From the NCBI GenBank assembly GCA_037127815.1, contig JBAXXP010000001.1, positions 232,174 through 296,173 of the forward strand: a DNA stretch of 64,000 bases, given 5' to 3'. Source of the stretch: a bacterium (GTDB taxonomy: Bacteria > Patescibacteriota > Minisyncoccia > Phycocordibacterales > CAIZLB01). Of the stretch, positions 12,702 through 44,801 are shown piece by piece. How positions within the stretch are numbered: position 1 is the stretch's first letter; each line of letters opens with the position of its first letter. The position numbers were made by a program, and so were the translations under genes. The notes below the pieces were generated by a model. That model did not search any database. It was not told the DNA's origin and saw only the letters and a program-made list of their open reading frames with translations.

Positions 12702-13100
12702 ATGTTCAAAAAATTTATAGATTGGATGCATAGTAAGAAAAGAATTGACTCAAAAGAAAGGGCCGAAACGGTTATTAAAGAAAGAGAGGTCTACTGGTGT
12801 TCCCTAGGAGAAAATATTGGTGATGAAGAAAATGGTAAAGGCACGGTGTTTCGTAGGCCTGTACTAATATTTAAAAAATTTAACAACCGTATTTTTTGGG
12901 GAATACCAATGAGTACGAAAAACAAGGTAAACATTTACTATTTAAAAGTAAAACTAAGAGACATGGAGCAGTCAGTAATGCTTTCCCAGTTGAGGATTTT
13001 GGATACTAAAAGACTCGATACAAAAATAGGATATCTATCTGAAGGTGATTTTATAAAAATACAAAATTCTATAATGGATATTATAAAAAATAAACGTTAA
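12702..13100 (+). CDS. MazF/PemK/EndoA-family endoribonuclease toxin (paralog 1), about 25-aa N-terminal extension
   Basis: EVYWCSLGENIGDEENGKGTVFRRPVLIF...IPMSTK...SQLRILDTKRLDTKIGYLSEGDF aligns with MazF/EndoA ([23 protein letters not shown] ... EQIRTIDKQRLTDKITHLDDEMM). Confidence 0.7.
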   Translation: MFKKFIDWMHSKKRIDSKERAETVIKEREVYWCSLGENIGDEENGKGTVFRRPVLIFKKFNNRIFWGIPMSTKNKVNIYYLKVKLRDMEQSVMLSQLRILDTKRLDTKIGYLSEGDFIKIQNSIMDIIKNKR

Positions 13101-13296: not shown

Positions 13297-13689
13297 TTGA
13301 TGTTTAAAAAATTCACAGAATGGATTCATGCAAAGATTAATATCGATGAAAAAGAAAGAAAATCTCAAATTAAAGTAATGGAAGTATATTGGTGTGCTCT
13401 AGGTGAGAATATAGGTGATGAAGAGAACGGAAAAGGGGATGATTTTTGCCGCCCTGTCTTAGTGTTTAAGAAGTTTAATAATAATATATTTTGGGGTATA
13501 CCCATGAGTACTAAAGAGAAAGAGAGCATTTATTATATAAAGGTCAGGCTTTTGGACTCTGTGCGGTCCGTAATGATTTCTCAGGTTAGAACTTTAGATA
13601 CAAAAAGGTTGCTTAAAAAGATAGGCTATATATCAAGGGCAGATTTTACAATCGTACAAGACGCAGTAATCGGAATCATAAAAAACTAA
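13297..13689 (+). CDS. MazF/PemK/EndoA-family toxin (paralog 2; tandem duplicate of 12702..13100)
   Basis: About 65% identical to paralog 1 over its full length with the same motifs. Confidence 0.7.
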   Translation: MMFKKFTEWIHAKINIDEKERKSQIKVMEVYWCALGENIGDEENGKGDDFCRPVLVFKKFNNNIFWGIPMSTKEKESIYYIKVRLLDSVRSVMISQVRTLDTKRLLKKIGYISRADFTIVQDAVIGIIKN

Positions 13690-26211: not shown

Positions 26212-26850
26212 ATGATAACCTACGCTTATATAGATGCTTCAAACCTATTTTACGGTGGTAAAAAAACTTTAGGATGGAGTATTGATTATGAAAAATTAAT
26301 AAAATATTTAAAATTTAGATTTGACGCATCTAATGTGTATTATTTTGGTGGAATAGAAATTAGTGGTTATAAATTTGATTACATGATTAATGATACAGTA
26401 GATTTGAATGCTCTGAAATTACATCTATTGGAACGTATTGATAGTTACAAGAAAGACACACTAGACAAAGTCGTTGTAGGCCTTAATCATCATCTAAAAC
26501 AAGTCCGTTTTTATCAAAAATTAGAGAAATTTGGATATCAGCTTTTTCTAAAGCCTGTAAAGATATATACGGATGATGCCGGCAATAAAAAACGGAAAGC
26601 AAATTGCGACGTTGAAATGACATTTTATCTAATGCATCACAAAAGCGAATTTGAAAGAATTGTTATTTTGTCGGGTGATGGAGACTTTTTGTCTGTATTA
26701 AAGTATTTGAGAAATATTGAAAATAAAGAAATTTTCATACTCGCTAGCGGGTCAAGAACATCAATGGAAATCAGGAGGTTTGTTGGAAATAAGTTCACAG
26801 ACATACTTAATTTAAAAGATTGTATAGAAATATCAGAAGAACATATCTAA
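26212..26850 (+). CDS. NYN-domain (LabA-like) predicted ribonuclease
   Basis: YAYIDASNLFYG ... RIVILSGDGDFLSVLKYLRNIENKEIFILAS matches NYN conserved Asp residues. Confidence 0.6.
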   Translation: MITYAYIDASNLFYGGKKTLGWSIDYEKLIKYLKFRFDASNVYYFGGIEISGYKFDYMINDTVDLNALKLHLLERIDSYKKDTLDKVVVGLNHHLKQVRFYQKLEKFGYQLFLKPVKIYTDDAGNKKRKANCDVEMTFYLMHHKSEFERIVILSGDGDFLSVLKYLRNIENKEIFILASGSRTSMEIRRFVGNKFTDILNLKDCIEISEEHI

Positions 26851-27292
26851 TAATTTAAGAGAGGCACCCCTTTTTAGGATACCTCTCGCGTGTGTTGTGA
26901 TAAATTATACCAGAATCGACACCTGCGTCAACTTGATTTTTGGAGCTTTGGTGTTGGAATAGAGATGTCTTTGCTTGATTTTTCACACACAGTAATGTAC
27001 TATCCACCTAAGACTTCAGATACCGTAGGTGATTTATAAGCTTATCAATATAAACTTATAAATCATAAACCCTGCGCAGAGGTTGAGAAATAAGGGTAGA
27101 TTTGCTTAATCGCAAAATTAAACCTCATTTTTCAAACACTCCTAACCCTGAAGTCCAGCGCAAAAAGCCTGTTGAAAGTACTAAATGTACAAACAATAAG
27201 CCAAAAGCACTGGATTTTTGTGTTTAGTCAAAGTCATTCGGTCGAACGGTTAAGTTTCAAATTACAAAATAAAACGCATTGCGTTCATTGAT

Positions 27293-27787
27293 ATGCCTAT
27301 ACAAAGAGCAAAAAAAGAAGAAATAGTTTCAAAGGTTAAGGATATTATCGATTCATCAAACAGTATGGTTTTTGTGAACTTTCACAAACTTCCAGTTACT
27401 CAAACAGGTGAGGTAAGACGTGAACTTCGTTCACATGAACTTGGATACTATGTAGCAAAGAAAACGCTTGTTAAAAAAGCTCTTTCAGACGCTGGTATCA
27501 AAGGGGAACTTCCTCCACTTGAAGGTGAATTAGCATTGGTATATGGTACAGATCTTTTAGCACCAGCTAGAGAAATCTTTGCTTTCCAAAAGAAAATGGA
27601 TAAGAAAATCTCAATTATGGGAGGTGTATTTGAAGGAGTATATAAGTCAAAGGAAGAAATGGAGTCAATCGCTTCAATTCCTTCAAGAGACGGACTATTG
27701 TCTATGTTCCTTAATGTCATCAACTCTCCAATTCAAGGTTTTGTTGTCGCATTAAATGCTATAGCAGATAAGATAGATTCAAAATAA
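27293..27787 (+). CDS. rplJ: 50S ribosomal protein L10
   Basis: N-terminal KKEEIVSKVKDIIDSSNSMVFVNFHKLPVTQTGEVRRELR pattern; directly followed by rplL. Confidence 0.85.
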   Translation: MPIQRAKKEEIVSKVKDIIDSSNSMVFVNFHKLPVTQTGEVRRELRSHELGYYVAKKTLVKKALSDAGIKGELPPLEGELALVYGTDLLAPAREIFAFQKKMDKKISIMGGVFEGVYKSKEEMESIASIPSRDGLLSMFLNVINSPIQGFVVALNAIADKIDSK

Positions 27788-27826
27788 GTTAGAAAAGTTA
27801 AAATTAAAAATAATTAATATAAATAT

Positions 27827-28324
27827 ATGGATGAATTAAACACAACAACTCCTGCTGACGTTACAACTGACGTTGTAGCTGACACAGCAGTAGAGACAGT
27901 AGCTGAAGTTAAGGCCGAGGCTAAGTCAGACAAAGCAGAAGTAGTAGCTGAGGTTGCTGTACCTGCACATTACAAGGCCCTTGTTGAATCAATAGAGAAA
28001 ATGACAGTTCTAGAACTGCATGACCTTGTTAAATTCCTAGAGAAGAGATTTGGAGTATCTGCAGCAGCGGTTTCTGTAGCAGGTCCTGCAGCAGGCCCAG
28101 CAGCTGAAGAGAAAACATCTTTCGATGTTAATCTTAAGGATGCCGGAGCAAACAAGATTTCTATCATTAAGGTAGTTAAGGAAGTTCTAGGTCTTGGTCT
28201 TAAAGAGGCAAAGGATCTAGTTGACGCTGCTCCTTCAACAATCAAGGCTGGAATGAAGAAGGAAGATGCTGATGCTCTTAAGAAGCAAATCGAGGATGCT
28301 GGTGGAACTGTAGAGCTTAAATAA
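27827..28324 (+). CDS. rplL: 50S ribosomal protein L7/L12 (about 40-aa acidic N-terminal extension if the annotated ATG is used)
   Basis: C-terminal domain [56 protein letters not shown]. Confidence 0.85.
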
Positions 28325-30280: not shown

Positions 30281-31128
30281 AAAATCGCTCAACTTCAAGA
30301 AACGACGAACTCAGCATTCCTGAAATTTGAAAATTAAATTCTGTACCAGTTTTAGTGGATAACATTCATGTAGTTTAGGCCATGTGGCCGATGCTACCTG
30401 ATACGTATTCTGTTTGGTCTTTTCAATACTGGAGACAGAGCTCCATGAAGTACTACTTTAAGGGTAATGCTGCATGGGGTCGTTATCGTACTTACTCTCA
30501 AGGAGTATGATAACAAAACAGGTAACAAACAAAAGTGATTGTGGTCTTTTTATTTCCTAATAGGAAATATAAGGGCGTATGGTGGATGCCTTGACACAAC
30601 ATAGCGATGAAGGACGCAGCATGGCGGCGATACGCTTCGGGGAGGTGCCTAGCAACCTTTGATCCGGAGATTTCCGAATGGGGAAACCCAAGAGACTTGA
30701 TCTCTTATCTTACTTTTAAGTAAGGTGCGCACCCAGTGAAGTAAAACATTCTAGTAACTGGAGGAAAAGAAAACAAGTACGTAAGTACACAATTTCGTAA
30801 ATAGCGGCGAGCGAAAACGAAATAGCCCAAACCAGACTTCCACATTGGGGATGACATTTTATCGGTTCTTTAATTTATTAGGGAACTATCATTATGCTGT
30901 CTCCTATGTGGCAGTCTGGGGTTGTAAGATAATAATAGGATATTTATATCCAAAGAGTTACAAAATTTTTTGTTAACAGAACGCGTTGGGAAGCGCGACC
31001 AAAGAGGGTGACAGTCCCGTATGTGAAAATAAAAAATCTCTTCTTTATTACTCTTGAGTACCCCGAGACACGAGTGGCTCGGGGGAATCCAGCAGAACTA
31101 ACTGCTAAGGCTAAATATATGTTGTGAT

Positions 31129-31165
<37 letters not shown>

Positions 31166-32591
31166 CAGTCCGATGAGGACAGTGAAATAGACCTGAAACC
31201 ATATGCCTACAAGGAGTCAGAGCGGACGTATTTATACGATCCGTCATGGCGTGCCTATTGAAGAATGAGCCAACGAGTTAATATGTATTGCTCGGCTAAA
31301 TCCGCGAGGATGGAGCCATAGGGAAACCGAGTATTAATAGTGCGTCCGTATTACATATTAGACCCGAAGCCAATGCGAGCTATCCCTGGTCAGGCTGAAC
31401 TTTGTCGAAAGACAAAGGGAGGGCCGAACCCGTATGTCGTTCAACTCATTGGGATGAACTGGGGATAGAAGTGAAAAGCTAATCGAGCTTGGTAATAGCT
31501 GGTTCTCTCCGAAATAGCTTTTGGGTTAGCGTCGTGTGTTCCTCTTGGGGGTAGAGCACTGGAAGGACTCGACAGGGAGAAATCTCGCGAGTCCTATCAA
31601 ACTCCGAATACCAAGAACTAAAGCACGGCAGTTAGTCCGTGGGGGCTAAGCTCCACAGGACAAAAGGGAAACAGCCCTAGATCCATATTTAAGGTCCCTA
31701 AATCTATACTAAGTGCACTTAAGGTGGTGGAATTTCTGAGACAATGAGGAGGTTTGCTTAGAAGCAGCAATCCTTGAAAGATAGCGTAATAGCTCACTCA
31801 TCGAGAGATTCTGCGCCGCAGATTCGCGGGGCTAAAGTATAGTACCGAAACTTGGGGTGTCCTACTGCTTCGGCGGTAGGGCGCGGTAGGAGAGTGTTCT
31901 TGTCTGCGATGAAGGGGAAGAGGTGACTCACCCTGGAGCGTCAAGAAGTAAGAATGTTGGCACAAGTAACCACAATCGGAGTGAAAAACTCCGACGCCGA
32001 AAGAACAAGGTTTCCTTCGCAATGATTGTCATCGAAGGGTTAGTCGGGCCTAAGGGGATGGTGAGAACCGAACCCGACGGACACATGGTTAATATTCCAT
32101 GACTTCTGTATACAGTGATGAAATGACGGAGTGTAGTATGAACAGCGCATAATCGGATTTGTGTCCATGCTTTAAGGAAGTTCTCTAGGTAAGTCCGGAG
32201 AGCTGATTTTAATATCAATTCCAAATAGAGTGGAGACGTTAGGGGTTCGCCTCTAAATAATTGTTCAAAGCACGCTTCCAAGAAAATTTTCTAAACTTAT
32301 GTATGCGGAAACCGTACCGAAAACCGACACAGGTGTTCAGGTCGAGTAGACCAAGGCGAACGGGTGAGAGGTCTTCAAGGAACTCGGCAAAAAAGCAGCC
32401 GTAACTTCGGAATAAGGCTCGCCCTCCCTAAAAAGAGGGTTGCAACAAAAGTATCCCTGGCAACTGTTTATCAAAAACACAGCTCCCTGCGAACTCGTAA
32501 GAGTATGTATAGGGGGTGACACCTGACCGATGCCAGAAGGTTAAACGTTGAGGGTACTATCGCAAGGTAGTGCTGATTGATGTAAGCCCTG

Positions 32592-32626
<35 letters not shown>

Positions 32627-32987
32627 TCAGCATTTGTTTTTATTAATGAATGCTGAAGAACTAGGACTGTTCATAGATGTGTTGATAAATAATGAAGAAC
32701 CAAAGAATGCAAAGGAAAATTAGAGCTGCCTGTTTCAGTAAAATGAAGCGTTCAGACTGACTATATGCTGGTAAATCTGTGTGTGAAAAACACTGTAGTA
32801 TCTAACACTACTAAGTTATAAAATTCGAAAGAAAATTATTTCAAGTAAAAATGTGATTAGTGCAGACGATCAGCAGGAAAGACTAAAAAGTAATTTTTAG
32901 AATCCTCAGAAACCAAACGTCAGACTAAATAGTAATATTTAGAAGATAGAGTTCGATCTTTATAGCGATATAAAGTTAACATAAATT
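32627..32987 (+). mobile_element. Group I intron in 23S rRNA at the position equivalent to E. coli about 1931 (between CCUAAGGU and AGCGAAAUUCC); no ORF
   Basis: 361-nt insertion splitting a universally conserved 23S block. Contains group I core elements (CAGACTAAATA R-like, AGAAGATAGAGTTCGATC S-like). Boundaries +/- 2 nt. Confidence 0.7.
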
Positions 32988-33316
32988 AGCGAAATTCCTT
33001 GTCAGGTAAGTTCTGACGCGCACGAATGGTGTAATGACTGGGGAACTGTCTCGAAGACCCGCCCGGTGAAAATGCAATGGAGGTGAAGATGCCTCCTACC
33101 TGCAGCTAGACGAAAAGACCCCAGAAGCTTCACTGCAACTTGATATTGATTGTATGTTTTTACTGCGTAGAATAGATGGGAGAGGTTGAGATCCTGATTT
33201 CGGTTAGGGTGGACTCGTCAGTGAAATACCATTCTTTAAAAATATACATTCTAACCTCGACGGAAAAAACGTCGAGAGACAGTATCTGGTGGGCAGTTTT
33301 AGTGGGGCGCTATCCT

Positions 33317-33680
33317 CGAGGGTTTAAATTAATTTTTGAATCCTCGAACTATGGCGCCTCCAGAGATTTGTCATCTCGAAACAAATAAAAAAGGGGGACT
33401 GTAATAAGTAATTATTATTAGAAAAGTTAGTTATATGCTGGAAAATCTGTGTCTTCAATGACTTAGAATGCAAGCTACCTATTAATTTAGGTAACAATGT
33501 TTGCATGCAGACTATCAGCAGGAAAGATTTCTATCACAAAAAGTAAAATTGATGTAATAGAGAAATCCTCAGAGACTATACGCTAACCGTCCAGTAAAAT
33601 GGATGATGATATAGTCCGATCTTTATAGCGATATAAAGCTTACTGAAAAGTAAGGCTTAGTAAAATAAGTAACATAAATG
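33317..33680 (+). mobile_element. Group I intron in 23S rRNA inserted just 3' of the P-loop block (GGGGCGCUAUCCU | CCUAAAAAGUAACGGAGG; E. coli about 2260s); no ORF
   Basis: 364-nt insertion; 5' exon ends in U and intron ends in G. Shares core elements with intron 1 (TATATGCTGG-AAATCTGTGT, ATCAGCAGGAAAGA, GATGATATAGTCCGATC, AACATAAAT). Confidence 0.7.
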
Positions 33681-34066
33681 CCTAAAAAGTAACGGAGGAG
33701 TCTATTAAGGTCAGCTAGGCGCGAATGGAAACCGTGCCGATAGTGCAATGGCATAAGCTGGCTTGACTGTGAGGCGTAAGTGCCAAACAGACGCGAAAGC
33801 GGAGCATAGTGAACCGAGGGTCCGCATTAGATGCGGCCAAAGATTATCTGACAAAAGCTACTCTGGGGATAACAGGCTGGTTGTGCCTAAGCGTCCATAG
33901 CGACGGCACAGTTCGGCACCTCGATGTCGGCTCGACTTATCCTGGGGGTGAAGAAGCTCCCAAGGGTATGGCTGTTCGCCATTTAAAAAGTCACGCGAGC
34001 TGGGTTCAGACCGTCGTAAGACAGGTTGGTCTCCTATCTGCTGCAGGCGTTGATACTTGAGAGGAA

Positions 34067-34097
<31 letters not shown>

Positions 34098-34413
34098 TGA
34101 TCTCTGGTGTACCAGTTGTCTTGCCAAAGGCATCGCTGGGTAGCTATATCGGGAATGGATAAGCTCTGAAAGCATCTAAGAGCGAAGCCAACCTCAAGAT
34201 AAGGTATCGTTTGAGATCCGTGAGAGATTATCACGTTGATAGGCACTAAGTATAAGCATAGTAATATGTTCAGCTGAGGTGTACTAATAAATCGATTCTT
34301 ATTAGGAAATATGAAGATTCACGATCACTTTTGTTTGTGACCTAAATTACAAAATAATAATTCTGCAAGTTTTATTATAGAACCATGAAAAGACCTTTAA
34401 ATTGACCGTTTCG

Positions 34414-34523
34414 TTCTGGTGACTCGTCGGAGGGGCCACACCTGATCTCATTCCGAACTCAGAAGTTAAGACCTCCAGAGGCGATGATACTCACTTGTTG
34501 GGGAAAGTAGCTCGTCGCCAGAA
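34414..34523 (+). rRNA. rrf: 5S ribosomal RNA
   Basis: CCACACCTGATCTCATTCCGAACTCAGAAGTTAAG ... terminal helix TTCTGGTGAC / GTCGCCAGAA. Confidence 0.85.
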
Positions 34524-34637
34524 CATAGCGGTTAATTTAAATATTAAAAGAACTAGCCCATGAAATGAAAATTTTGTGGGTGTTTTTTTGTATTAATTTT
34601 GTATTTCTTCTGTATTGCTTTGTTGCTCATCTCAAAA

Positions 34638-34733
34638 AGATAAACACAAGCTATTTAGAGACTAGTGAGTTGCAACGAACTGAGAGGATTTTCAGCAGAA
34701 AATCATCGTACTCTAAATAGCTTGTGTTTATCT
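34638..34733. repeat. Perfect 23-bp inverted repeat (AGATAAACACAAGCTATTTAGAG ... CTCTAAATAGCTTGTGTTTATCT) separated by 50 nt containing a nested hairpin
   Basis: Direct reading; lies 115 nt downstream of 5S and 28 nt upstream of ATG 34762. Confidence 0.8.
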
Positions 34734-34761
34734 TTGTTACTAACTCTGCTAGAATGTATTT

Positions 34762-35517
34762 ATGAACTGGTCTATTCAAAAACAACTTATTTACGGTATT
34801 ACATTTGTAATGATTTTATCAGCACTAATTGGCTTACCATTGTATTTTAACTTCTTTAATAAGTCACCAACTTGTTTTGATAATAAGCGGAATCAGGATG
34901 AGACTGGAGTTGACTGTGGAGGTATTTGTACAAAGGCCTGCACAGCAGATGTAATTGGAACACCGTTGCTTTTGTGGTCTAGAGCTTTTACAATTGCTAA
35001 TGGAAAAAATAATTTAGTTGCGTATCTTCAAAATCCAAATCTAAATTACATTTCAGAGCCTTTTTCTTATGTATTTAATGTTTTTGATGATAACAATATT
35101 TTACTTGGAACAAGGGAGGGTGTTGTAAGTGCTACGAATGAGAAAAATTTTGTTGTCTTTGAACAAGCTTTTGATGCTGGGCAAAGAAAAATTGGTAAGG
35201 TTATTTTTGAGATAACATCTCCTGTTACATGGATCAGAAAACCATCAGAAAAGGCAAAGGTCACAGTATCATCGGATCAAATAATTTCTGTAGCTGGTAT
35301 ACCAACATTGACTTCAACGATTACTAATACAACAGTAAAAACGTACACTAATTTTTATGTTGTCGCAATTGTATATGATGTAGATGGAAATGCTAAGGTG
35401 GTATCAAGAACATTAGTCGATGAATTGAGAGGAAACGGAAAGGCTGATGTTGTGTTTACGTGGCCATATCTAACAGATTTAAAGTATTCTAAAATAGAAC
35501 TGTTGCCAAAGATCTAG
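34762..35517 (+). CDS. Hypothetical membrane-anchored protein with Cys-rich segment (CFDNKRNQDETGVDCGGIC)
   Basis: N-terminal TM helix; no catalytic motifs; precedes SEDS gene. Confidence 0.45.
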   Translation: MNWSIQKQLIYGITFVMILSALIGLPLYFNFFNKSPTCFDNKRNQDETGVDCGGICTKACTADVIGTPLLLWSRAFTIANGKNNLVAYLQNPNLNYISEPFSYVFNVFDDNNILLGTREGVVSATNEKNFVVFEQAFDAGQRKIGKVIFEITSPVTWIRKPSEKAKVTVSSDQIISVAGIPTLTSTITNTTVKTYTNFYVVAIVYDVDGNAKVVSRTLVDELRGNGKADVVFTWPYLTDLKYSKIELLPKI

Positions 35518-35565
35518 TTTTCAAACTTATAGAAATTAAATATTCTACAAATAACCTTTATTAAA

Positions 35566-36708
35566 ATGATTGTGATAGATGAAATATTATCCTCAAAGAA
35601 AAAATGGCGCCCAGATCTCTATATTTTAGGCGCTGTATTGCCAATATTAGGAGCGGGGCTTATAACAATGAAATCTTTTGTTGGCAGCAGTGATTATTTT
35701 GGTAGACAATTAGTTTGGATAATTGTTGCGTTAATGGCTTTTTTTGTATCAAGTAAAATAGATTTTAGAGTATTAAAGCGAACTTCAGTAATTGTTGTTT
35801 TATACGGCTTGTCTACATTAATGCTTGTTGCGCTGTTTGTTTTTGGATCTATTTCAAACGGAGCAAAAAGTTGGATAAATGTTGGGCTTTTTTCTATTCA
35901 ACCATCTGATCCCGCAAAATTAATTCTAATATTGCTACTAGCTAAGTATTTTTCTAGACGTCATATGGAAATTGCAAATATACGCCATATAATTGTTTCT
36001 GGGGCCTATACTTTTATTGTTTTCATTTTGGTGGCACTGCATCCAGACTTAGGTTCTGCTATTACAATTTTTGCAATTTGGTTTGGAATGGTTCTATTTT
36101 CTGGTATTTCAAAGAAACACCTCGCTATAGTTTTTTTAAGTGGTTCATTGGTATTTTTTGGGGCTTGGAATCTGGTTTTCAAGGAGTATCAAAAAAATAG
36201 AATCATTAACTTCATCACTCCCTCGGCTGATGTTAGGGGTAGTGGATATAATGCAAGACAAGCGATGATAACCGTTGGTTCTGGTGAATTATTTGGGCGT
36301 GGAATTGGCTATGGTACTCAATCAAGACTACAGTTCCTTCCTGAATATCAAACAGACTTTGTTTTTGCAGCTTTTGCAGAAGAATGGGGTTTTGTAGGTG
36401 TAATAATTCTAATGAGTTTATTTGCATTAATTATTGCCAGAATTTTATATATAGCTTCAAAAGGGGAGACAAACTTTGAGATATTATTTGGGGTTGGGCT
36501 CGCTATATTCTTTATGTCGCACTTAATAATTAATATAGGAATGAACATTGGCCTCATGCCGGTAACTGGTATTCCAGTTCCATTTATGAGTTATGGTGGG
36601 TCTCACTTGGTTACAGAATTTGTTGGTTTAGGTCTTTTGATGTCCATGAGGAAGTATTCTAGGCCTATACATAAGGACAGAACCAATAATGAGTTTCTGG
36701 GATACTAG
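35566..36708 (+). CDS. SEDS-family peptidoglycan glycosyltransferase (FtsW/RodA/SpoVE)
   Basis: Multi-TM; TDFVFAAFAEEWGFVG and PFMSYGGSHL motifs. Confidence 0.75.
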   Translation: MIVIDEILSSKKKWRPDLYILGAVLPILGAGLITMKSFVGSSDYFGRQLVWIIVALMAFFVSSKIDFRVLKRTSVIVVLYGLSTLMLVALFVFGSISNGAKSWINVGLFSIQPSDPAKLILILLLAKYFSRRHMEIANIRHIIVSGAYTFIVFILVALHPDLGSAITIFAIWFGMVLFSGISKKHLAIVFLSGSLVFFGAWNLVFKEYQKNRIINFITPSADVRGSGYNARQAMITVGSGELFGRGIGYGTQSRLQFLPEYQTDFVFAAFAEEWGFVGVIILMSLFALIIARILYIASKGETNFEILFGVGLAIFFMSHLIINIGMNIGLMPVTGIPVPFMSYGGSHLVTEFVGLGLLMSMRKYSRPIHKDRTNNEFLGY

Positions 36709-36847
36709 GCTTTCTGCTTTTTTTGTGTTCCATATCAATCTGTTCTTTACAGAGCTTTTGTTTTTATAATATATTTTATAACACTTCTATTGGCATAATG
36801 TACACCCTTGTCACAATTCTTTAAGTGAGTATAATTGGCGTTATCAT

Positions 36848-38347
36848 ATGAAAAAAGTCAGAATTAGCGCAATCTTACTGCTTATCTTCGGATTCGCAGT
36901 ACTAGGATTTGATTATTATTCACAAGTTCCGGGCCAAGGATTTATTTCTAATTTTCCTTTTAAACTTGGCTTAGATCTTAGCGGTGGATCACACTTGGTT
37001 TATCAAGCAGACCTTCAAAAATCTGGCTCCGTTGGGGGTGTTAAGGATGTTGATGGAGCAATGGAAAGTCTAAGGGGGGTTATTGAATCAAGAATTAACG
37101 CCTTTGGAGTTTCAGAGCCTATCATTCAAACAGAAAAATCTACAATTAACGGGCAAGAAGTTCGTAAATTAGTTGTAGAGCTTCCTGGTGTAACAGACCT
37201 GAAGAGTGCTATTGATACAATAGGAAAGACTCCAGTTCTTGAATTTAAGATTCAAAAAGAGGGGGTGGGAGAAGCTGATCTTACAAAAGCTACAGAGCTA
37301 CAAAAAGCCCTTAACGAGCTATCTACATCATCTAGCGCTTCAGCTGTAGCTTCAGCAAATGCTGTTGATGCAACAAGCTCATTAATTTCACTATTAACAT
37401 CAACAAGTACAAATAACCAAACAGCTAAAGCAACATCAACTGTTGCTGCTACAGTAGACTATTCAAAGCTATATGATGACGTTGGACTAACAGGTCAATA
37501 CCTTAAATCAGCGCAAGTACAATTTGATACAAACACAAGACAACCTCTTGTTGCAATTTCTTTTGATGAAACAGGAAAGGCAAAGTTTGCAGAGGTTACT
37601 GGAAAAAACATCGGAAAGATTTTAGCTATTTTCCTAGACGGAAAGCCAATTTCTACTCCAGTAATTAGAGATCAAATCAAGGATGGAAGCGCTGTGATTT
37701 CAGGAAACTTTACTCCAGAGGAGGCAAAGTCACTTGCTAGAGACCTAAGATATGGTGCTCTACCTGTTCCTATAACACTTATTGGAACTCAATCAATTGG
37801 TGCTTCTCTTGGTGAAAACGCACTTAAGGCTAGTGTTGATGCAGGACTTTGGGGATTCCTTATTATCGCAATATTCCTATTGCTATGGTATAGACTTCCT
37901 GGTCTTGTAGCTATTGTTTCATTATCAATGTATACAATATTCATGCTAGCAATATTTAAGATGATTCCGGTTGTTCTAACTTCAGCTGGACTTGCTGCCT
38001 TTATTCTATCTATTGGTATGGCGGTTGATGGAAATATTCTAATCTTTGAAAGAATGAGAGAAGAACTTGCAAAAGGCCACTCTCTTGAAGATGGTATAAG
38101 AGAAGGTTTTGCGCGCGCATGGCTTTCAATTAGAGATTCAAACTTATCAAGTATTATTACTGCTGTTATTCTTTATTTCTTTGCAACATCTGCATTAATT
38201 AAAGGTTTTGCATTAGTATTCTTAATTGGTGTGTTGGTTTCAATGTTTACAGCTATTACAATTTCAAGAACTTTCCTTCTTGCACTTGGTGTTAAGAAAC
38301 ACAAGGGAATTGTAAAGTTTTTATTCAGTAATGGCCTAAGACGCTAA
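36848..38347 (+). CDS. secD: Protein translocase subunit SecD
   Basis: LGLDLSGGSHLVYQAD motif, periplasmic domain, C-terminal 6-TM block. Confidence 0.85.
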   Translation: MKKVRISAILLLIFGFAVLGFDYYSQVPGQGFISNFPFKLGLDLSGGSHLVYQADLQKSGSVGGVKDVDGAMESLRGVIESRINAFGVSEPIIQTEKSTINGQEVRKLVVELPGVTDLKSAIDTIGKTPVLEFKIQKEGVGEADLTKATELQKALNELSTSSSASAVASANAVDATSSLISLLTSTSTNNQTAKATSTVAATVDYSKLYDDVGLTGQYLKSAQVQFDTNTRQPLVAISFDETGKAKFAEVTGKNIGKILAIFLDGKPISTPVIRDQIKDGSAVISGNFTPEEAKSLARDLRYGALPVPITLIGTQSIGASLGENALKASVDAGLWGFLIIAIFLLLWYRLPGLVAIVSLSMYTIFMLAIFKMIPVVLTSAGLAAFILSIGMAVDGNILIFERMREELAKGHSLEDGIREGFARAWLSIRDSNLSSIITAVILYFFATSALIKGFALVFLIGVLVSMFTAITISRTFLLALGVKKHKGIVKFLFSNGLRR

Positions 38348-38370
38348 TTTAAAAGACTAAAAATAATATT

Positions 38371-39351
38371 ATGTTTGTAGTTAAATACAGAAAAATTTTT
38401 TACACGTTATCAATACTCCTAGTATTATTCTCTATATTTTCAATTTCAAAATATGGACTAAATTACGGAATTGATTTCAAAGGTGGTTCAATTATTGAAG
38501 TTGAATACAAGGGCGCAAAACCATCTCATGATGAGATTACATCAATTGTTAAAAATGCTGGTGTCACAAGTGAAATAGTTGTAAGACCAACGGGGGATAT
38601 GGGTTATATTATTAGAACTGCCGATTTAGCATCTAGTACAATTGATTCAGTTACAGCGAGTCTAAAGACTGGAGTTGCTGGAACATCAACAGCCACAACT
38701 TCTGCTGTTGCCGCTTTTTCAGATTCAAATAACTCTGGTGTAGCAACATCAACAGCCATTAAAGGAGAAATAAAAAGAATGGATACAGTAGGACCGATTC
38801 TTGGTCAAGAGCTTCAATCAAAGGCTTGGACTTCAATTCTTTTTGTTATACTTGCGATTGTTTTGTTCATCACATTTGCATTTAGACATGTTTCAAAGCC
38901 TGTCTCATCATGGAAATATGGGCTGTCAGCCGTTATTGCACTTGCTCATGACGTATTGGTTCCAACTGGAATCTACGTGTTCCTAGGAAGGAATGGAGGC
39001 TTTGAAATCGACGCACTCTTTGTCACTGCTATTCTTGTTATACTTGGATTCTCAGTTCACGATACAATTGTTGTGTTTGATAGAACAAGAGAGAACCTAA
39101 AGCTAGATGATCATCATAAGGATGCATTTGATAAAACTGTTGGAAAGAGTATTAGTCAAACATTCACTAGATCTATAAACACTTCATTGGTTACAGTGCT
39201 AGCGTTGGTTGCTCTATATATCTTTGGGGCTGAGGCAACTAGAAACTTCTCATTGATATTGATTATTGGTATTGTTTTGGGAACATACTCATCAGTATTT
39301 CTAGGATCTCCACTTTTGGTTACTTTTTGGAAGGGACAAAAGAATAACTAG
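38371..39351 (+). CDS. secF: Protein translocase subunit SecF
   Basis: YGLNYGIDFKGGSIIEVEY motif and C-terminal TM block; adjacent to secD. Confidence 0.85.
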   Translation: MFVVKYRKIFYTLSILLVLFSIFSISKYGLNYGIDFKGGSIIEVEYKGAKPSHDEITSIVKNAGVTSEIVVRPTGDMGYIIRTADLASSTIDSVTASLKTGVAGTSTATTSAVAAFSDSNNSGVATSTAIKGEIKRMDTVGPILGQELQSKAWTSILFVILAIVLFITFAFRHVSKPVSSWKYGLSAVIALAHDVLVPTGIYVFLGRNGGFEIDALFVTAILVILGFSVHDTIVVFDRTRENLKLDDHHKDAFDKTVGKSISQTFTRSINTSLVTVLALVALYIFGAEATRNFSLILIIGIVLGTYSSVFLGSPLLVTFWKGQKNN

Positions 39352-39492
39352 TCTATTGAGCATGGGGCATTAGATTGCGGTCAGGTAATAGATTAGAAGA
39401 CAAACTGAGGTCAGACAATAGAAGATATGGTATAATCGTAAACATCAAACAATTAGTTTGGTGTTTATTGTTTTAATTTAACTAAAGTACCG

Positions 39493-40215
39493 ATGAATAA
39501 AATATCAGTTAAGATCTCATGGAAATCCGGTTTAGAGACATTCAAGAAAAATTGGCAAATTCTAATATATGCAGTAGCTGTACCGTTCCTTGTTGGTGTG
39601 GTTATGGACGAAGCTTTTAAAATTAATGATATGAAGAAGTTGGTAACTGAGTCTTTATATCCCTTGTTTGGGACTAAGGCTTTATACCCCTTAATGCTGC
39701 TTATTTTATACTATGTAGTCAAGTTTTTGATGCAGGTATTATTTAATGCAGGTCAAACAAAGATAAAACTAGATTCTATTGAAGGCAGTGAGACAAAATT
39801 TTCTGACCTATTCAATTCCCAGGGTGTATATTTGAGACTTATAGCTGTCACCGTGATTTATTCGCTTGCAGTCCTAGGGGGTATGATATTATTGATTATT
39901 CCGGGAATATACATAGCTATAAGATATTGTTTTGCTTCCACATTGATTGTAGACAAGAAGATGGGGATAGGGGAGGCTTTTGCTAAATCAAGAGCGATGA
40001 CTGAGGGGAAAATGGTGGAATTATTTCTGTTTTTCATATTGTCTGGCCTCCTAGTTCTATCTGGTCTAATTGCCTTGGGAGTCGGAATTGTTGTAACCTT
40101 TATAATCTTTGAGCTAGCATTCCTTCATTTATATAAATCTCTACTTAATCAATCTGAAGAGCAAGTGAGTGGTGGTCAAATGGAAATCGAGGAAATTTCA
40201 ACTTTAGAGCAGTAA
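39493..40215 (+). CDS. Hypothetical polytopic membrane protein
   Basis: Several hydrophobic helices; no motifs recognised. Confidence 0.4.
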   Translation: MNKISVKISWKSGLETFKKNWQILIYAVAVPFLVGVVMDEAFKINDMKKLVTESLYPLFGTKALYPLMLLILYYVVKFLMQVLFNAGQTKIKLDSIEGSETKFSDLFNSQGVYLRLIAVTVIYSLAVLGGMILLIIPGIYIAIRYCFASTLIVDKKMGIGEAFAKSRAMTEGKMVELFLFFILSGLLVLSGLIALGVGIVVTFIIFELAFLHLYKSLLNQSEEQVSGGQMEIEEISTLEQ

Positions 40216-40386
40216 TTATCTCGTAAAATTAGGTAAAATTATAAGAATTAGAAAATTGGTAGATTTTAAATTGAAAAAAGTGGAAAAAATTAGGTCATTC
40301 CATCTTTAAAATATCGTTATTTGTAGGGCTATAAGTGATATTTTAGGCTTAAAAAAAGGTTCTACATAAAGTCCATCCAAAAAGAC

Positions 40387-40414
40387 TTGACGGCAAGCGT
40401 TTTATGGCTATAAT
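40387..40414 (+). promoter_or_regulatory. Sigma70-like promoter TTGACG-16-TATAAT, putative 16S rRNA promoter
   Basis: Near-consensus hexamers about 190 nt upstream of 16S; discriminator TACGAC identical to the 23S promoter. Confidence 0.6.
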
Positions 40415-40602
40415 TACGACCACGCCACTGATGATTTTCACAAATCATTTGATTAAATCGCAGGGGGCCGTCCTAGGAATCTCCCAGGAATATTGAGTTA
40501 GGTAAAACTAATAAAATATTTCAGGCATTTCTAAAGACATCTTTGACAACTAAATGACAACCAACAAACGTCCTTTTTTTTGTTCTGTTTGAGTTTAATT
40601 TT

Positions 40603-42062
<1,460 letters not shown>

Positions 42063-42424
42063 GAACAATTCAATTTGAAAAATGCGTACATGAATTTCAT
42101 GTATTAGCTGAATACGGTTGATCGAACTTAATTTATTAAGCTCAATGAGATTATGCCTCGAGAATGCATAAGGAAGGTATAACCTAAATATACTGCCTCC
42201 TGGGAACAAGGCCAGGCCAAACAGAACAATAATAAGGACGGTTGAGGTTGTCATTTAGTCGCCAAAGTACATATTTTATATGATAAAAGTACTCCGCAAG
42301 CGGGGTTTTTTTATTGCTTTGTTTTTCTTAAAATAGTCTTTAAAATAGACTTGTTTTTAATGGGATAATTTGATACATTATAAACCACAAACAGCAAAGG
42401 TTTGACAAGTCTGTTTGTAAGAAT

Positions 42425-42498
42425 GCGTGTGTAGCTCAGCTGGTTAGAGCACTTCACTGATAATGAAGAGGCCGCAGGTTCGAGTCCTGCCACACGCA
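42425..42498 (+). tRNA. tRNA-Ile (anticodon GAU)
   Basis: GCGTGTGTAGCTCAGCTGGTTAGAGCACTTCACTGATAATGAAGAGGCCGCAGGTTCGAGTCCTGCCACACGCA; cloverleaf with CUGAUAA anticodon loop. Confidence 0.85.
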
Positions 42499-42594
42499 CA
42501 AAGTAAGTCTCAAGTTTGAATCTATAAGTTATAAAATCTGCAGGGTAACCTGTGGATTTTTTAATTGATTTTTGCAATATACCATATATGATAT

Positions 42595-44160
42595 ATGTAT
42601 ATGAAAAGCAAAACAGAGTTAAAAGTCAAAGTATCTACTAATCCTAAGGTAACAGAAAGTAATAAAAATTTGGGATTCTTTATTAAACAACTTCGAGAGG
42701 ATAGAAATCTAACTCAAACAGATTTTGCTAAGCTTTTGAAAACATCACAAAGTGCGGTAGCTAGGATTGAGAATGGGGGACAGAACATGACAACAGAAGA
42801 ATTGAATAGAATAAGTATTGCTCTTGGAAGAAAAATTATGACTATTTCAGATTCTATTGATGTAGAAATTAATGGGGGAAGAAAACTTTCTGGAACTATC
42901 GCAACGAATACATCTAAAAATGGGGCGCTTGGTCTTATTTGTGCATCACTTTTAAATAAAGGAAAAACTCGTCTGCATGGAATACCTCGTATTGAAGAGG
43001 TTCAAAGAATTATAGAATTAATGGAAAGTATTGGTATTTCAATAAAATGGATTGAAAAAAATACTTTGGAAATTATTGTTCCAAAAAAGTTAAAAACGGA
43101 GAATATGGATAAGGTCGCAGCAGGAAGAATTAGATCCGGCTTGATGATGATTGGCCCAATGATCCATCTAGAAAGTATATTTAAAATACCTCACTCAGGA
43201 GGTTGTAAAATGGGTCAAAGGACAATCTCTGCTCATAGATATGGTCTAGAAGATTTGGGTGTAAAAATTGATACAAAAGAGGATCATTATCTAATTCAAT
43301 CAAAAAAACTAGCGCCCGCTCATATTATAATGTCAGAGTCTTCCGATACTGCGGCCGAGAATTTATTAATGGCGGCAGCCCTAATAAAAGGGAAGACTAC
43401 AATTCAGTTTGCACCACCAAACTATCAGGTTCAGGAAGTATGTTTCTTTCTGGAAACCTTGGGTGTGAAAATTGAGGGCGTTGGTTCAACCACGTTAATC
43501 GTTCATGGAATTGATGAAATTAATATGGATGTTGATTATTATAATAGTGAAGATCCAACAGAATCTATGATGTTCATTACAGCAGGTATTGTAACTGGAT
43601 CTACTCTGACTATAACGAGATGTCCAATTGATTTTCTAGCCCTGGAAATGTTTAAGTTAAAAAAGATGGGATTGAAGTATAAGCAGACATCTGTTTATTA
43701 TGCTGTGAATGGTAGAACAAAATTAGTTGATATTACTATTTACCCATCAAAACTAGTTGCTCCACTTGATAAAATTTCAGCCCAACCATATCCTGGAATT
43801 AATACTGATAACCTGCCATTCTTTGTGCCAATTGCTGTGTTGGCTAAGGGGACAACTTTGATTCATGATTGGATGTGGGAGAATAGAGCAATTTATTTTA
43901 CAGAGTTAAATAGGCTTGGGGCCAATATCAACCTGGCGGATCCTCACAGAGTTTTTATTCAAGGGCCCACAGAATTGAAGGCTGCACAAATTGTTTGCCC
44001 TTTAGCACTACGCCCTGCAATGATTATTATGGTTGCCATGCTTGGAGCAAAAGGAAAATCTATTCTTAGAAACATTTACCCAATAAGCAGGGGGTATGAG
44101 GATATTGCTGAACGATTGAATGGAATAGGGGCGGACATTAAGGTGATAAAGGAGATATAG
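42595..44160 (+). CDS. murA: UDP-N-acetylglucosamine 1-carboxyvinyltransferase MurA fused to an N-terminal XRE/Cro-type HTH domain (about 85 aa)
   Basis: HTH: LTQTDFAKLLKTSQSAVARIENG. MurA: GGRKLSGTIATNTSKNGALGLICASLL, C-terminal RGYEDIAERLNGIGADI. Confidence 0.8.
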   Translation: MYMKSKTELKVKVSTNPKVTESNKNLGFFIKQLREDRNLTQTDFAKLLKTSQSAVARIENGGQNMTTEELNRISIALGRKIMTISDSIDVEINGGRKLSGTIATNTSKNGALGLICASLLNKGKTRLHGIPRIEEVQRIIELMESIGISIKWIEKNTLEIIVPKKLKTENMDKVAAGRIRSGLMMIGPMIHLESIFKIPHSGGCKMGQRTISAHRYGLEDLGVKIDTKEDHYLIQSKKLAPAHIIMSESSDTAAENLLMAAALIKGKTTIQFAPPNYQVQEVCFFLETLGVKIEGVGSTTLIVHGIDEINMDVDYYNSEDPTESMMFITAGIVTGSTLTITRCPIDFLALEMFKLKKMGLKYKQTSVYYAVNGRTKLVDITIYPSKLVAPLDKISAQPYPGINTDNLPFFVPIAVLAKGTTLIHDWMWENRAIYFTELNRLGANINLADPHRVFIQGPTELKAAQIVCPLALRPAMIIMVAMLGAKGKSILRNIYPISRGYEDIAERLNGIGADIKVIKEI

Positions 44161-44226
44161 TTTTTTAGATATATACAACTTAAGTAAGTGGTTTAGCGAG
44201 AGGTTTGATACAATTATTTTACATAC

Positions 44227-44255
44227 TTGCAAAATACATGCATTTTGCATATAAT
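44227..44255 (+). promoter_or_regulatory. Promoter TTGCAA-17-TATAAT with embedded operator palindrome TGCAAAAT-N6-ATTTTGCA; ATG of antitoxin 6 nt downstream of -10
   Basis: Direct reading. Confidence 0.55.
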
Positions 44256-44261
44256 ATATGT

Positions 44262-44537
44262 ATGACTACAAACGTACAAATAAGAGTAGACACAAAGTTA
44301 AAGAATGAGGCAGAAAAGACTTTGAATAAACTGGGTCTGGATTTACCTACGGCTTTTAGAATTTTCCTAAATAAAATAAACATTACTGGGGGAATACCTT
44401 TTCCTGTAAATAATGATAGTTATTTCAATTATACAAAAGAACAGGAGGATGAGATACTGGATGCCTATAAAAATGGTAAAAGATCAAAGGAGTTTAAAAA
44501 TGCCAAGGAATTAATTAAGCATCTAAGGTCTCAATAA
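44262..44537 (+). CDS. RelB/DinJ-family antitoxin (ORF track start 44205 is TTG; in-frame ATG at 44262)
   Basis: VQIRVDTKLKNEAEKTLNKLGLDLPTAFRIFLNKI resembles DinJ (ARIDEDLKNQAADVLAGMGLTISDLVRITLTKV). Confidence 0.6.
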   Translation: MTTNVQIRVDTKLKNEAEKTLNKLGLDLPTAFRIFLNKINITGGIPFPVNNDSYFNYTKEQEDEILDAYKNGKRSKEFKNAKELIKHLRSQ

Positions 44538-44540
44538 AAA

Positions 44541-44801
44541 ATGAAGATAGTTACTACAGATAAGTATGATAAAAAATATAAAAAACTAAGTAATAATCTA
44601 AAAGATAAGATAGATAGAGCACTGGAGAAATTTGCAAAAGATCCTTTTGACCCATCTCTACTAAACCATGGTCTACAAGGAGGACTTAATGGTTTTAACT
44701 CTATTAAGGCAGGTTTTGATTTAAGAATTATTCTTAAGGAAGAGAATGGTTATATATTGGTTTTACTGATTGATTTAGGAAAACATGATCATGTTTATTA
44801 G
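44541..44801 (+). CDS. RelE/YafQ-family mRNA interferase toxin
   Basis: 86 aa; basic N-terminus, HGLQGGLNGFNSIKAGFDLRIIL...LIDLGKHDHVY pattern typical of YafQ/RelE; 3 nt after antitoxin stop. Confidence 0.6.
   Translation: MKIVTTDKYDKKYKKLSNNLKDKIDRALEKFAKDPFDPSLLNHGLQGGLNGFNSIKAGFDLRIILKEENGYILVLLIDLGKHDHVY

Follow-up and report, generated by a model that had tools for sequence, protein, structure and literature searches.

The window analysed here is the whole 64-kb stretch of DNA presented above (G+C content 36.6%), and the 16S rRNA gene that it contains is the gene we examined; CPR usually carry one 16S copy. The order of the rRNA genes is unusual, running from 23S and 5S through five protein genes (hypothetical, FtsW, SecD, SecF, hypothetical) to 16S and tRNA-Ile (30556–42499), so that the intervening protein genes leave 16S unlinked from 23S-5S. 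Judging from sequence, the 16S gene seems to be transcribed independently, between a candidate promoter in front of it and a terminator-like hairpin behind it. The features of this unit, together with the other RNA genes of the region, are as follows.

30556–34308: 23S rRNA gene, containing a group I intron (Rfam)
34415–34523: 5S rRNA gene (Rfam)
40387–40414, + strand: candidate sigma-70 promoter of the 16S unit, TTGACG-16 nt-TATAAT, matching the consensus at 11 of 12 positions, better than any other site in the region
40541–40596, + strand: leader (5′) strand of the pre-16S processing stem, abutting the mature 5′ end (inverted repeats, cofold)
40596–42075, + strand: 16S rRNA gene, limits from Rfam RF00177
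42039–42062, + strand: helix 45, 10 bp with a GGAA loop, Paceibacteria-type variant CACGGCUAGCGGAAGCUGGUCGUG (Rfam alignment)
42063–42075, + strand: 13-nt 3′ tail GAACAAUUCAAUU, without the CCUCC anti-Shine-Dalgarno (anti-SD) motif (Rfam alignment to GAUcACCUCCUUu)
42069–42079, + strand: mini-hairpin UUCA-AUU-UGAA, identified by covariation, with the 5′ arm where the anti-SD used to be and the 3′ arm immediately beyond the Rfam end
42086–42216, + strand: structured 3′ trailer of six hairpins (RNAalifold on the window and four close relatives)
42086–42104, 42105–42120 and 42124–42143, + strand: trailer hairpins 1 to 3 (RNAalifold)
42151–42171, 42172–42197 and 42199–42216, + strand: trailer hairpins 4 to 6 (RNAalifold)
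42117–42122, + strand: GUUGAU, the window's version of a G(U/C/G)(C/U)GAU motif (top-ranked 5-mers in CPR trailers)
42196–42201, + strand: CCTCCT, a chance occurrence and not an anti-SD, pairing in hairpins 5 and 6 and not conserved
42214–42267, + strand: trailer (3′) strand of the pre-16S processing stem (inverted repeats, cofold, relatives)
42291–42313, + strand: intrinsic-terminator-like hairpin ACTCCGCAAGCGGGGT followed by TTTTTTT, closing the 16S unit before tRNA-Ile
42425–42499: tRNA-Ile(GAT), after the 16S unit

Several other observations on the window are recorded here in their own right. The 23S gene is 3753 nt long, whereas the model has 2925 positions, and the roughly 830 extra nt exceed what the 272-nt match to the group I intron (RF00028, 33367–33638, 70.2 bits) explains. 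Genes for uL10 (27293–27787) and bL12 (27827–28324) are present, with no uL11 or uL1 directly upstream of them in this one window (26212–28324); the region upstream of uL10 is occupied by an NYN-domain gene and by some 440 nt in which no ORF reaches 50 aa. Beside the 16S unit, 42595–44160 encodes a 521-aa protein in which an N-terminal HTH_3 domain is fused to an EPSP-synthase/MurA-type domain, and of which an identical copy is found on 20 public contigs; a RelB/YafQ-type toxin-antitoxin pair (44205–44801) also lies downstream of the unit, and two adjacent PemK/MazF-type toxin genes are found at 12702–13100 and 13297–13689. The ORF at 51–2135 (694 aa) encodes a histidine-phosphatase domain (residues 66–191), an anticodon-binding domain and, of the class I (Ile/Val/Leu-type) tRNA-synthetase core, the C-terminal portion only; a synthetase that has been split or fused is one possible reading. 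An 88-aa minus-strand ORF (41988–42254) runs across the end of 16S, and we take it to be spurious.

The 16S 3′ tail and its distribution

The bacterial small-subunit model of Rfam (RF00177, SSU_rRNA_bacteria) matches the 16S gene with 1377.5 bits, the gathering score being 50, and covers model positions 1–1533 of 1533, i.e. the full length. The 3′ sequence is as the preliminary description gave it, with AAGTCGTAACAAGG followed by helix 45 (CACGGCTAGCGGAAGCTGGTCGTG, 42039–42062) and then by GGAACAATTCAATTTG. Helix 45 itself is well supported, as 100% of cells are paired and six of its ten pairs covary across 66 distinct sequences. The gene remains a 16S gene, with helix 45 and its GGAA-type loop present, but the expected GAUCACCUCCUU tail is not found: after helix 45 stands GAACAAUUCAAUU where GAUCACCUCCUUu was expected. 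When the 3′ region is scanned alone, the SSU model sets GAACAAUUCAAUU opposite the consensus GAUcACCUCCUUu with maximal posterior probability (“*”) throughout. The preliminary description had claimed a tail without the CCUCC anti-SD and had proposed a covariance-model alignment as a check; the Rfam alignment puts no CCUCC in the 16S 3′ tail, and the claim stands.

A search of the GTDB species representatives for loci that combine the GTACTCACCGCCCGTCA variant with AAGTCGTAACAAGG returned 120 of them, mostly from Patescibacteria and Campylobacterota. The closest full-length 16S sequences among these representatives are those of a Ca. Taylorbacteria metagenome-assembled genome (L011, 90.3% identity) and of L113 (89.7%), and the helix-45 signature of the window is common to loci labelled Paceibacteria/Parcubacteria. 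Tail type sorts cleanly with helix-45 type in these loci: CCUCC is missing in 51 of 51 distinct sequences sampled with the Paceibacteria-type helix 45 (CACGG[G/C]TAGCGGAAGCTG.TCGTG), and GATCACCTCCTT is kept in the same sample by Magasanik-, Moran-, Uhr- and Falkowbacteria and by all Campylobacterota. A lineage-specific scan recovered six relatives on metagenome contigs (L123–L125 and L127–L129) with 16S identities of 97.6–98.9%, and the tail is identical in all six. Whether relatives share the tail was a question raised at the outset, and the close relatives (6/6) and the Paceibacteria-type sequences (51/51, same tail type) answer it in the affirmative. Since all of these sequences share the CCUCC-less tail, we regard the loss as real, old and clade-wide.

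Precursor stem, trailer and tail mini-hairpin

The leader and trailer of the 16S gene pair with each other over 47 intermolecular base pairs when cofolded, at −57.6 kcal/mol compared with −16.5 ± 3.6 kcal/mol for shuffled sequences, and the same pre-16S stem forms in five relatives (L124, L125, L127, L128 and L129). Applied to flanks of 200 × 500 nt, RNAduplex returned whole-length duplexes that were uninformative, and a local pairing alignment was used instead. The preliminary description was right that a precursor stem exists but had given it too small an extent (40550–40573 with 42236–42258); the real stem is larger, with 47 bp between 40541–40596 and 42214–42267. Because the shorter stem had been taken, about 173 nt were thought to be enclosed, a figure that has to be revised: the full stem encloses 151 nt after helix 45 (42063–42213), which become about 138 nt when counted from the Rfam end.

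This trailer had also been described as far longer than the usual length of about 30 nt, which is an E. coli yardstick and does not apply to the lineage, where 80–190 nt are typical. Among anti-SD-less Paceibacteria with a clear stem, the 3′ gap between 16S end and stem falls in that range (e.g. 157 nt in L011, 187 nt in L113, 189 nt in L030 and 147 nt in L073), and in other CPR with a clear stem it is 40–170 nt. The 5′ gap is often 0–40 nt, so that the window, with a 5′ gap of 4 nt and a 3′ gap of 141 nt, is typical, and the long enclosed trailer is not anomalous because such a length is the norm of the lineage.

The segment was said to contain several hairpins, which is borne out by the six that we find. 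In the RNAalifold analysis of the window and four relatives, four base pairs changed on both sides, and these are spread over three of the six hairpins. It is from these compensatory changes that support for the hairpins is taken, because, folded as a single sequence, the trailer gains no significant stability over shuffles (z = −1.18). An Rfam E-value scan of 41880–42420 returned SSU only, so that the trailer matches no Rfam family, and no tRNA was found in it. On account of the compensatory changes in the hairpins and the conserved stem, we consider the trailer a structured precursor spacer under selection; with the same high confidence that we give to the explanation as a whole, the roughly 140–150 nt that separate the 16S end from the 3′ stem strand are a transcribed precursor spacer folded into about six hairpins. 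The top-ranked 5-mers in the trailers are GTCGA (27 of 57 distinct trailers) and TCGAT (29 of 57), at a site 40–67 nt after helix 45, and a G(U/C)CGAU motif is strongly over-represented there in CPR trailers. As a separate observation, a G(T/C/G)(C/T)GAT motif is present in most Paceibacteria trailers (L004–L129) and is enriched in other CPR too (GTCGA in 12 of 25). A complement of this GTCGAT-like trailer motif was not found in the 5′ leaders.

By textbook values, the pre-16S of E. coli has a 5′ side of about 115 nt and a 3′ side of 33 nt. The window shows the inverse geometry, its 5′ side measuring 0–4 nt and its 3′ side, made up of hairpins, about 140 nt, and the 16S unit, unlike that of E. 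coli, is monocistronic with its own terminator, 23S-5S lying upstream and unlinked. What the two have in common is a long duplex formed by the sequences that flank 16S, and CPR retain the rnc gene (PMC12641178). In the processing scheme that we propose, the leader–trailer duplex would be cut, presumably by RNase III; the 16S 5′ end, which abuts the stem, would need almost no trimming; and removal of the structured trailer would probably take an endonucleolytic cut close to the mini-hairpin of the tail, together with 3′–5′ trimming. We infer these three steps because RNase III (rnc), RNase J and PNPase are retained by CPR (PMC12641178), and both the nucleases named as acting on pre-16S and the exact mature 3′ end are to be read in the same conditional sense.

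In most anti-SD-less tails, the bases that stand in for CCUCC pair with those that directly follow. The mini-hairpin at the end of the tail is drawn from comparison within the clade, elsewhere in which its arms read CUCA/UGAG, UCCA/UGGA, GUCA/UGAC, UUCC/GGAA or UCCU/AGGA. A MAFFT alignment of the tails was ungapped, leaving the 3′ arms out of register, and a small covariance model was used in its place; in the resulting model-fitted alignment each of the four pairs shows changes in both partners, and pairing is found in 96% of cells. Because a covariance-model alignment is fitted to the structure, we added a fixed-column test, in which GAA follows TTC in 24 of 28 sequences and GAG follows CTC in 4 of 5, compared with GAG in 0 of 28 sequences with TTC. 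CPR with a canonical tail have a homologous CUCC...GGAG pairing of the anti-SD with the trailer. The hairpin is thermodynamically marginal at 3–4 bp, the minimum free energy (MFE) structure of the window tail being an open chain, and another set of anti-SD-less tails, of the GAUCAAUUAAAUUU type, has it in only 1 of 12. A covarying mini-hairpin at the old anti-SD position, identified here from sequence comparison, is possibly new to the literature.

Loci from Peribacteria (L003, L012, L016, L064, L065 and L082) carry the variant anti-SDs CUUCC and UCUCC in their tails, and these covary with a downstream GGGAA or GGGAG in the trailer. As Peribacteria tails covary with the trailer too, a tail–trailer hairpin seems to be general in CPR.

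Translation initiation

Shine-Dalgarno (SD) cores (GGAG, GAGG or AGGA at −20 to −4) precede 2 of the 43 genes of the window, compared with 6.5 expected from coding-sequence composition. By duplex energy, the upstream regions of these 43 genes pair with a canonical anti-SD no more strongly than shuffled sequence does, and with the actual tail they pair no better than shuffles (−2.04 versus −2.58 kcal/mol for shuffles). Since upstream pairing to both tails is no stronger than that of shuffles, the window genes appear to use neither an SD nor a replacement for it. In CPR that keep the anti-SD, a crude SD count gives 0.11 against a background of 0.08, which is little enrichment; because this count does not separate anti-SD-less from canonical CPR, we did not use it as correlation evidence, and a lack of SD sites is not diagnostic on its own. 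The little enrichment found even in anti-SD-keeping CPR suggests that SD use may have been weak already before the anti-SD was lost.

A different signal is found close to the start codons. With ORF-based starts (first ATG), a simple TATAAT-like hexamer rule and an expectation taken from internal ATGs, −10-like hexamers located 5–9 nt before the ATG number 10 versus 1.6 expected for the 43 ORFs of the window (6.3-fold; 2.0-fold at 15–30 nt), and 50 versus 4.6 expected for 293 ORFs from loci of the anti-SD-less clade (10.8-fold; 1.7-fold at 15–30 nt). This pile-up of −10 boxes 5–9 nt before start codons points to leaderless mRNAs, and many first-in-operon mRNAs appear to be leaderless, with the predicted −10 box at that distance from the ATG. 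The ribosomes of the lineage would start translation without SD:anti-SD pairing, and the remaining genes would do so from A/U-rich upstream regions that have no complementarity to the tail. The start-codon context of the 43 genes is an observation of its own: 65% of them have T at −1 and 51% have A at −2, and between −20 and −4 there is hardly any G; this pattern is a possible non-SD start context.

Leaderless translation in Actinobacteria, Deinococcus and archaea resembles what is predicted here in that a −10 box stands at a fixed short distance from the start and an SD is missing. Those bacterial groups keep their anti-SD, however, and the leaderless starts of the window are predicted from sequence.

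Competing explanations and significance

That the gene is a pseudogene or an assembly artefact can be dismissed with near certainty. The covariance-model match to 16S is full-length, relatives at 98% identity show compensatory changes, and 42039–42320 is base-identical in four independent assemblies (an NCBI metagenome-assembled genome, GCA_964417855.1, in which the contig measures 413 kb; two JGI metagenomes; and one Logan SRA assembly), an identity that excludes an artefact. It was also proposed that the 16S 3′ end is interrupted by an intervening sequence and that the true terminus, with CCUCCU, lies further downstream. Under such an arrangement about 42069–42195 would be removed and GGAACA joined to CCUCCUGG, restoring the anti-SD in the mature rRNA, and the joining of GGAACA to CCUCCU would mimic GGAUCACCUCCU. 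The CCTCCT is located at 42196–42201, as had been stated, and a CCTCCT within 173 nt is expected by chance in only about 3% of cases, although the window as a whole holds 23 copies versus 22.5 expected. Against removal of the segment, the site reads ACTCCT in L127 (97.6% identity), no CCTCC occurs in the trailers of nine distant relatives with the same tail type (L011, L113, L108, L017, L096, L030, L073, L105 and L022), and the CCTCCT of the window is base-paired, partly at the foot of hairpin 5 and partly within the 5′ arm of hairpin 6. Moreover, the trailer matches no intron family in Rfam, and the genes are without SD sites with which a restored anti-SD could pair. The canonical flank that removal would restore is not conserved in relatives, and with a motif that is mutated, absent in distant relatives, base-paired and at chance frequency, we judge this explanation highly improbable.

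Genuine insertions in CPR 16S genes do exist, and count in favour of an intervening sequence to that extent; Brown and colleagues are said to have described CPR rRNA insertions and introns in 2015. An example among the close relatives is L124 (98.6% identity), which has an 885-nt insertion at 16S position 1350/1351 (L124:3310–4194), within the GTACTCAC/CGCCCGTCA decoding-centre region, that neither the window nor any of the other relatives shares and that carries a 149-aa LAGLIDADG-like ORF (VGLVDGEGSF) and a weak Rfam hit to group II D1–D4. The likeness to such insertions is confined to extra sequence tied to a CPR 16S gene. True CPR insertions interrupt the mature rRNA, vary among close relatives and often carry homing-endonuclease ORFs, whereas the trailer of the window is not part of the mature rRNA, occurs in every relative (6/6 close relatives) rather than as a presence/absence polymorphism like the L124 insert, and has neither an ORF nor an intron signature.

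Two further explanations concern the tail itself. The new tail AAUUCAAUUUG might be a replacement anti-SD that pairs with a new upstream motif such as CAAAUUGAAUU, and the tail is well conserved over much of the clade; nevertheless, the pairing of upstream regions with the real tail does not surpass that of shuffles, the tail covaries instead with the bases directly downstream, and no variant SD matching a variant anti-SD was found in any of 128 exceptional taxa (Amin et al., PMC6107228), which makes a replacement scarcely credible. Less far-fetched, though still unlikely, and compatible with the main explanation, is that the mini-hairpin at 42069–42079 is kept in the mature 16S as a functional 3′-terminal helix. 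The compensatory changes of its arms in several lineages and the homologous anti-SD/trailer pairing of canonical CPR argue for retention, as does the report that h26, which contacts the SD helix, is unusually conserved in Parcubacteria, for which no explanation is given (Tsurumaki et al., PMC9297842); its 3–4 bp, unstable alone in the window, and the GAUCAAUUAAAUUU-type tails that lack it argue against. A retained mini-helix may fill the SD-duplex pocket by h26 or protect the 3′ end. As a tentative extension that we hold to be no likelier, the ancestral CUCC...GGAG hairpin would have been kept by compensatory mutation after the anti-SD lost its role, serving either as a mature mini-helix in the SD pocket or as a determinant of the mature 3′ end.

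We therefore favour, with high confidence, the explanation that the gene is a functional 16S of Parcubacteria/Paceibacteria (CPR) from which the anti-SD has truly been lost, that the loss is ancestral to a large clade, and that initiation proceeds without SD:anti-SD pairing. True loss was one of the two possibilities offered by the preliminary description, and it is the one that holds up: the CCUCC-less tail is common to the whole Paceibacteria-type clade, the genes lack SD motifs, and a loss in a Parcubacteria subgroup is already reported in a published study (PMC9297842).

According to that study, the anti-SD motif is detected in only 48% of Parcubacteria and its loss overlaps with lineages that lack uL1 (Tsurumaki et al. 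2022, RNA 28:1041, PMC9297842). The want of uL11 and uL1 genes directly upstream of uL10 in the window would be in keeping with such an overlap, but is no proof of it. The window resembles the subgroup concerned in its CPR/Parcubacteria affiliation and in the absence of CCUCCU from the 16S 3′ end, and Parcubacteria-1 (Magasanik-, Uhr- and Falkowbacteria) keep the motif there as they do in the present sample. The paper gives only the motif rate and the uL1 overlap, and its passages located by term search describe no replacement tail, mini-hairpin, precursor stem or trailer, or promoter-proximal starts. Apart from this study, the literature searched held nothing specific on SD or leaderless translation in CPR. 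Taxa without an anti-SD are rare among bacteria (128 of about 20,600); they are also without SD motifs, and no new SD arises in them (Amin et al. 2018, PMC6107228). Other anti-SD-less bacteria, including some Flavobacteriia, Mycoplasma, Carsonella and Hodgkinia (Lim et al. 2012; PMC6107228), share with the window a CCUCC-less 13-nt tail and the lack of an SD motif or a compensating SD. They belong to different phyla, however, and here the loss defines a very large clade; compared with Hodgkinia, whose tail is reported to drift freely, the tail in the present clade is conserved and palindromic.

The loss of the anti-SD in this clade has thus been in print since 2022, and the window adds one more member. 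That loss marks a huge, mostly uncultured clade, and so is relevant to the way in which ultrasmall CPR cells initiate translation. The points that may exceed published work are the covariation of the former anti-SD bases with the first bases of the trailer, the strong leaderless-mRNA signature of the clade, and the inverted precursor geometry, in which the stem abuts the 5′ end and a 140-nt trailer carries a GUCGAU-like motif. Together, the covariation, the leaderless signature and the precursor geometry are leads on 30S maturation in CPR.
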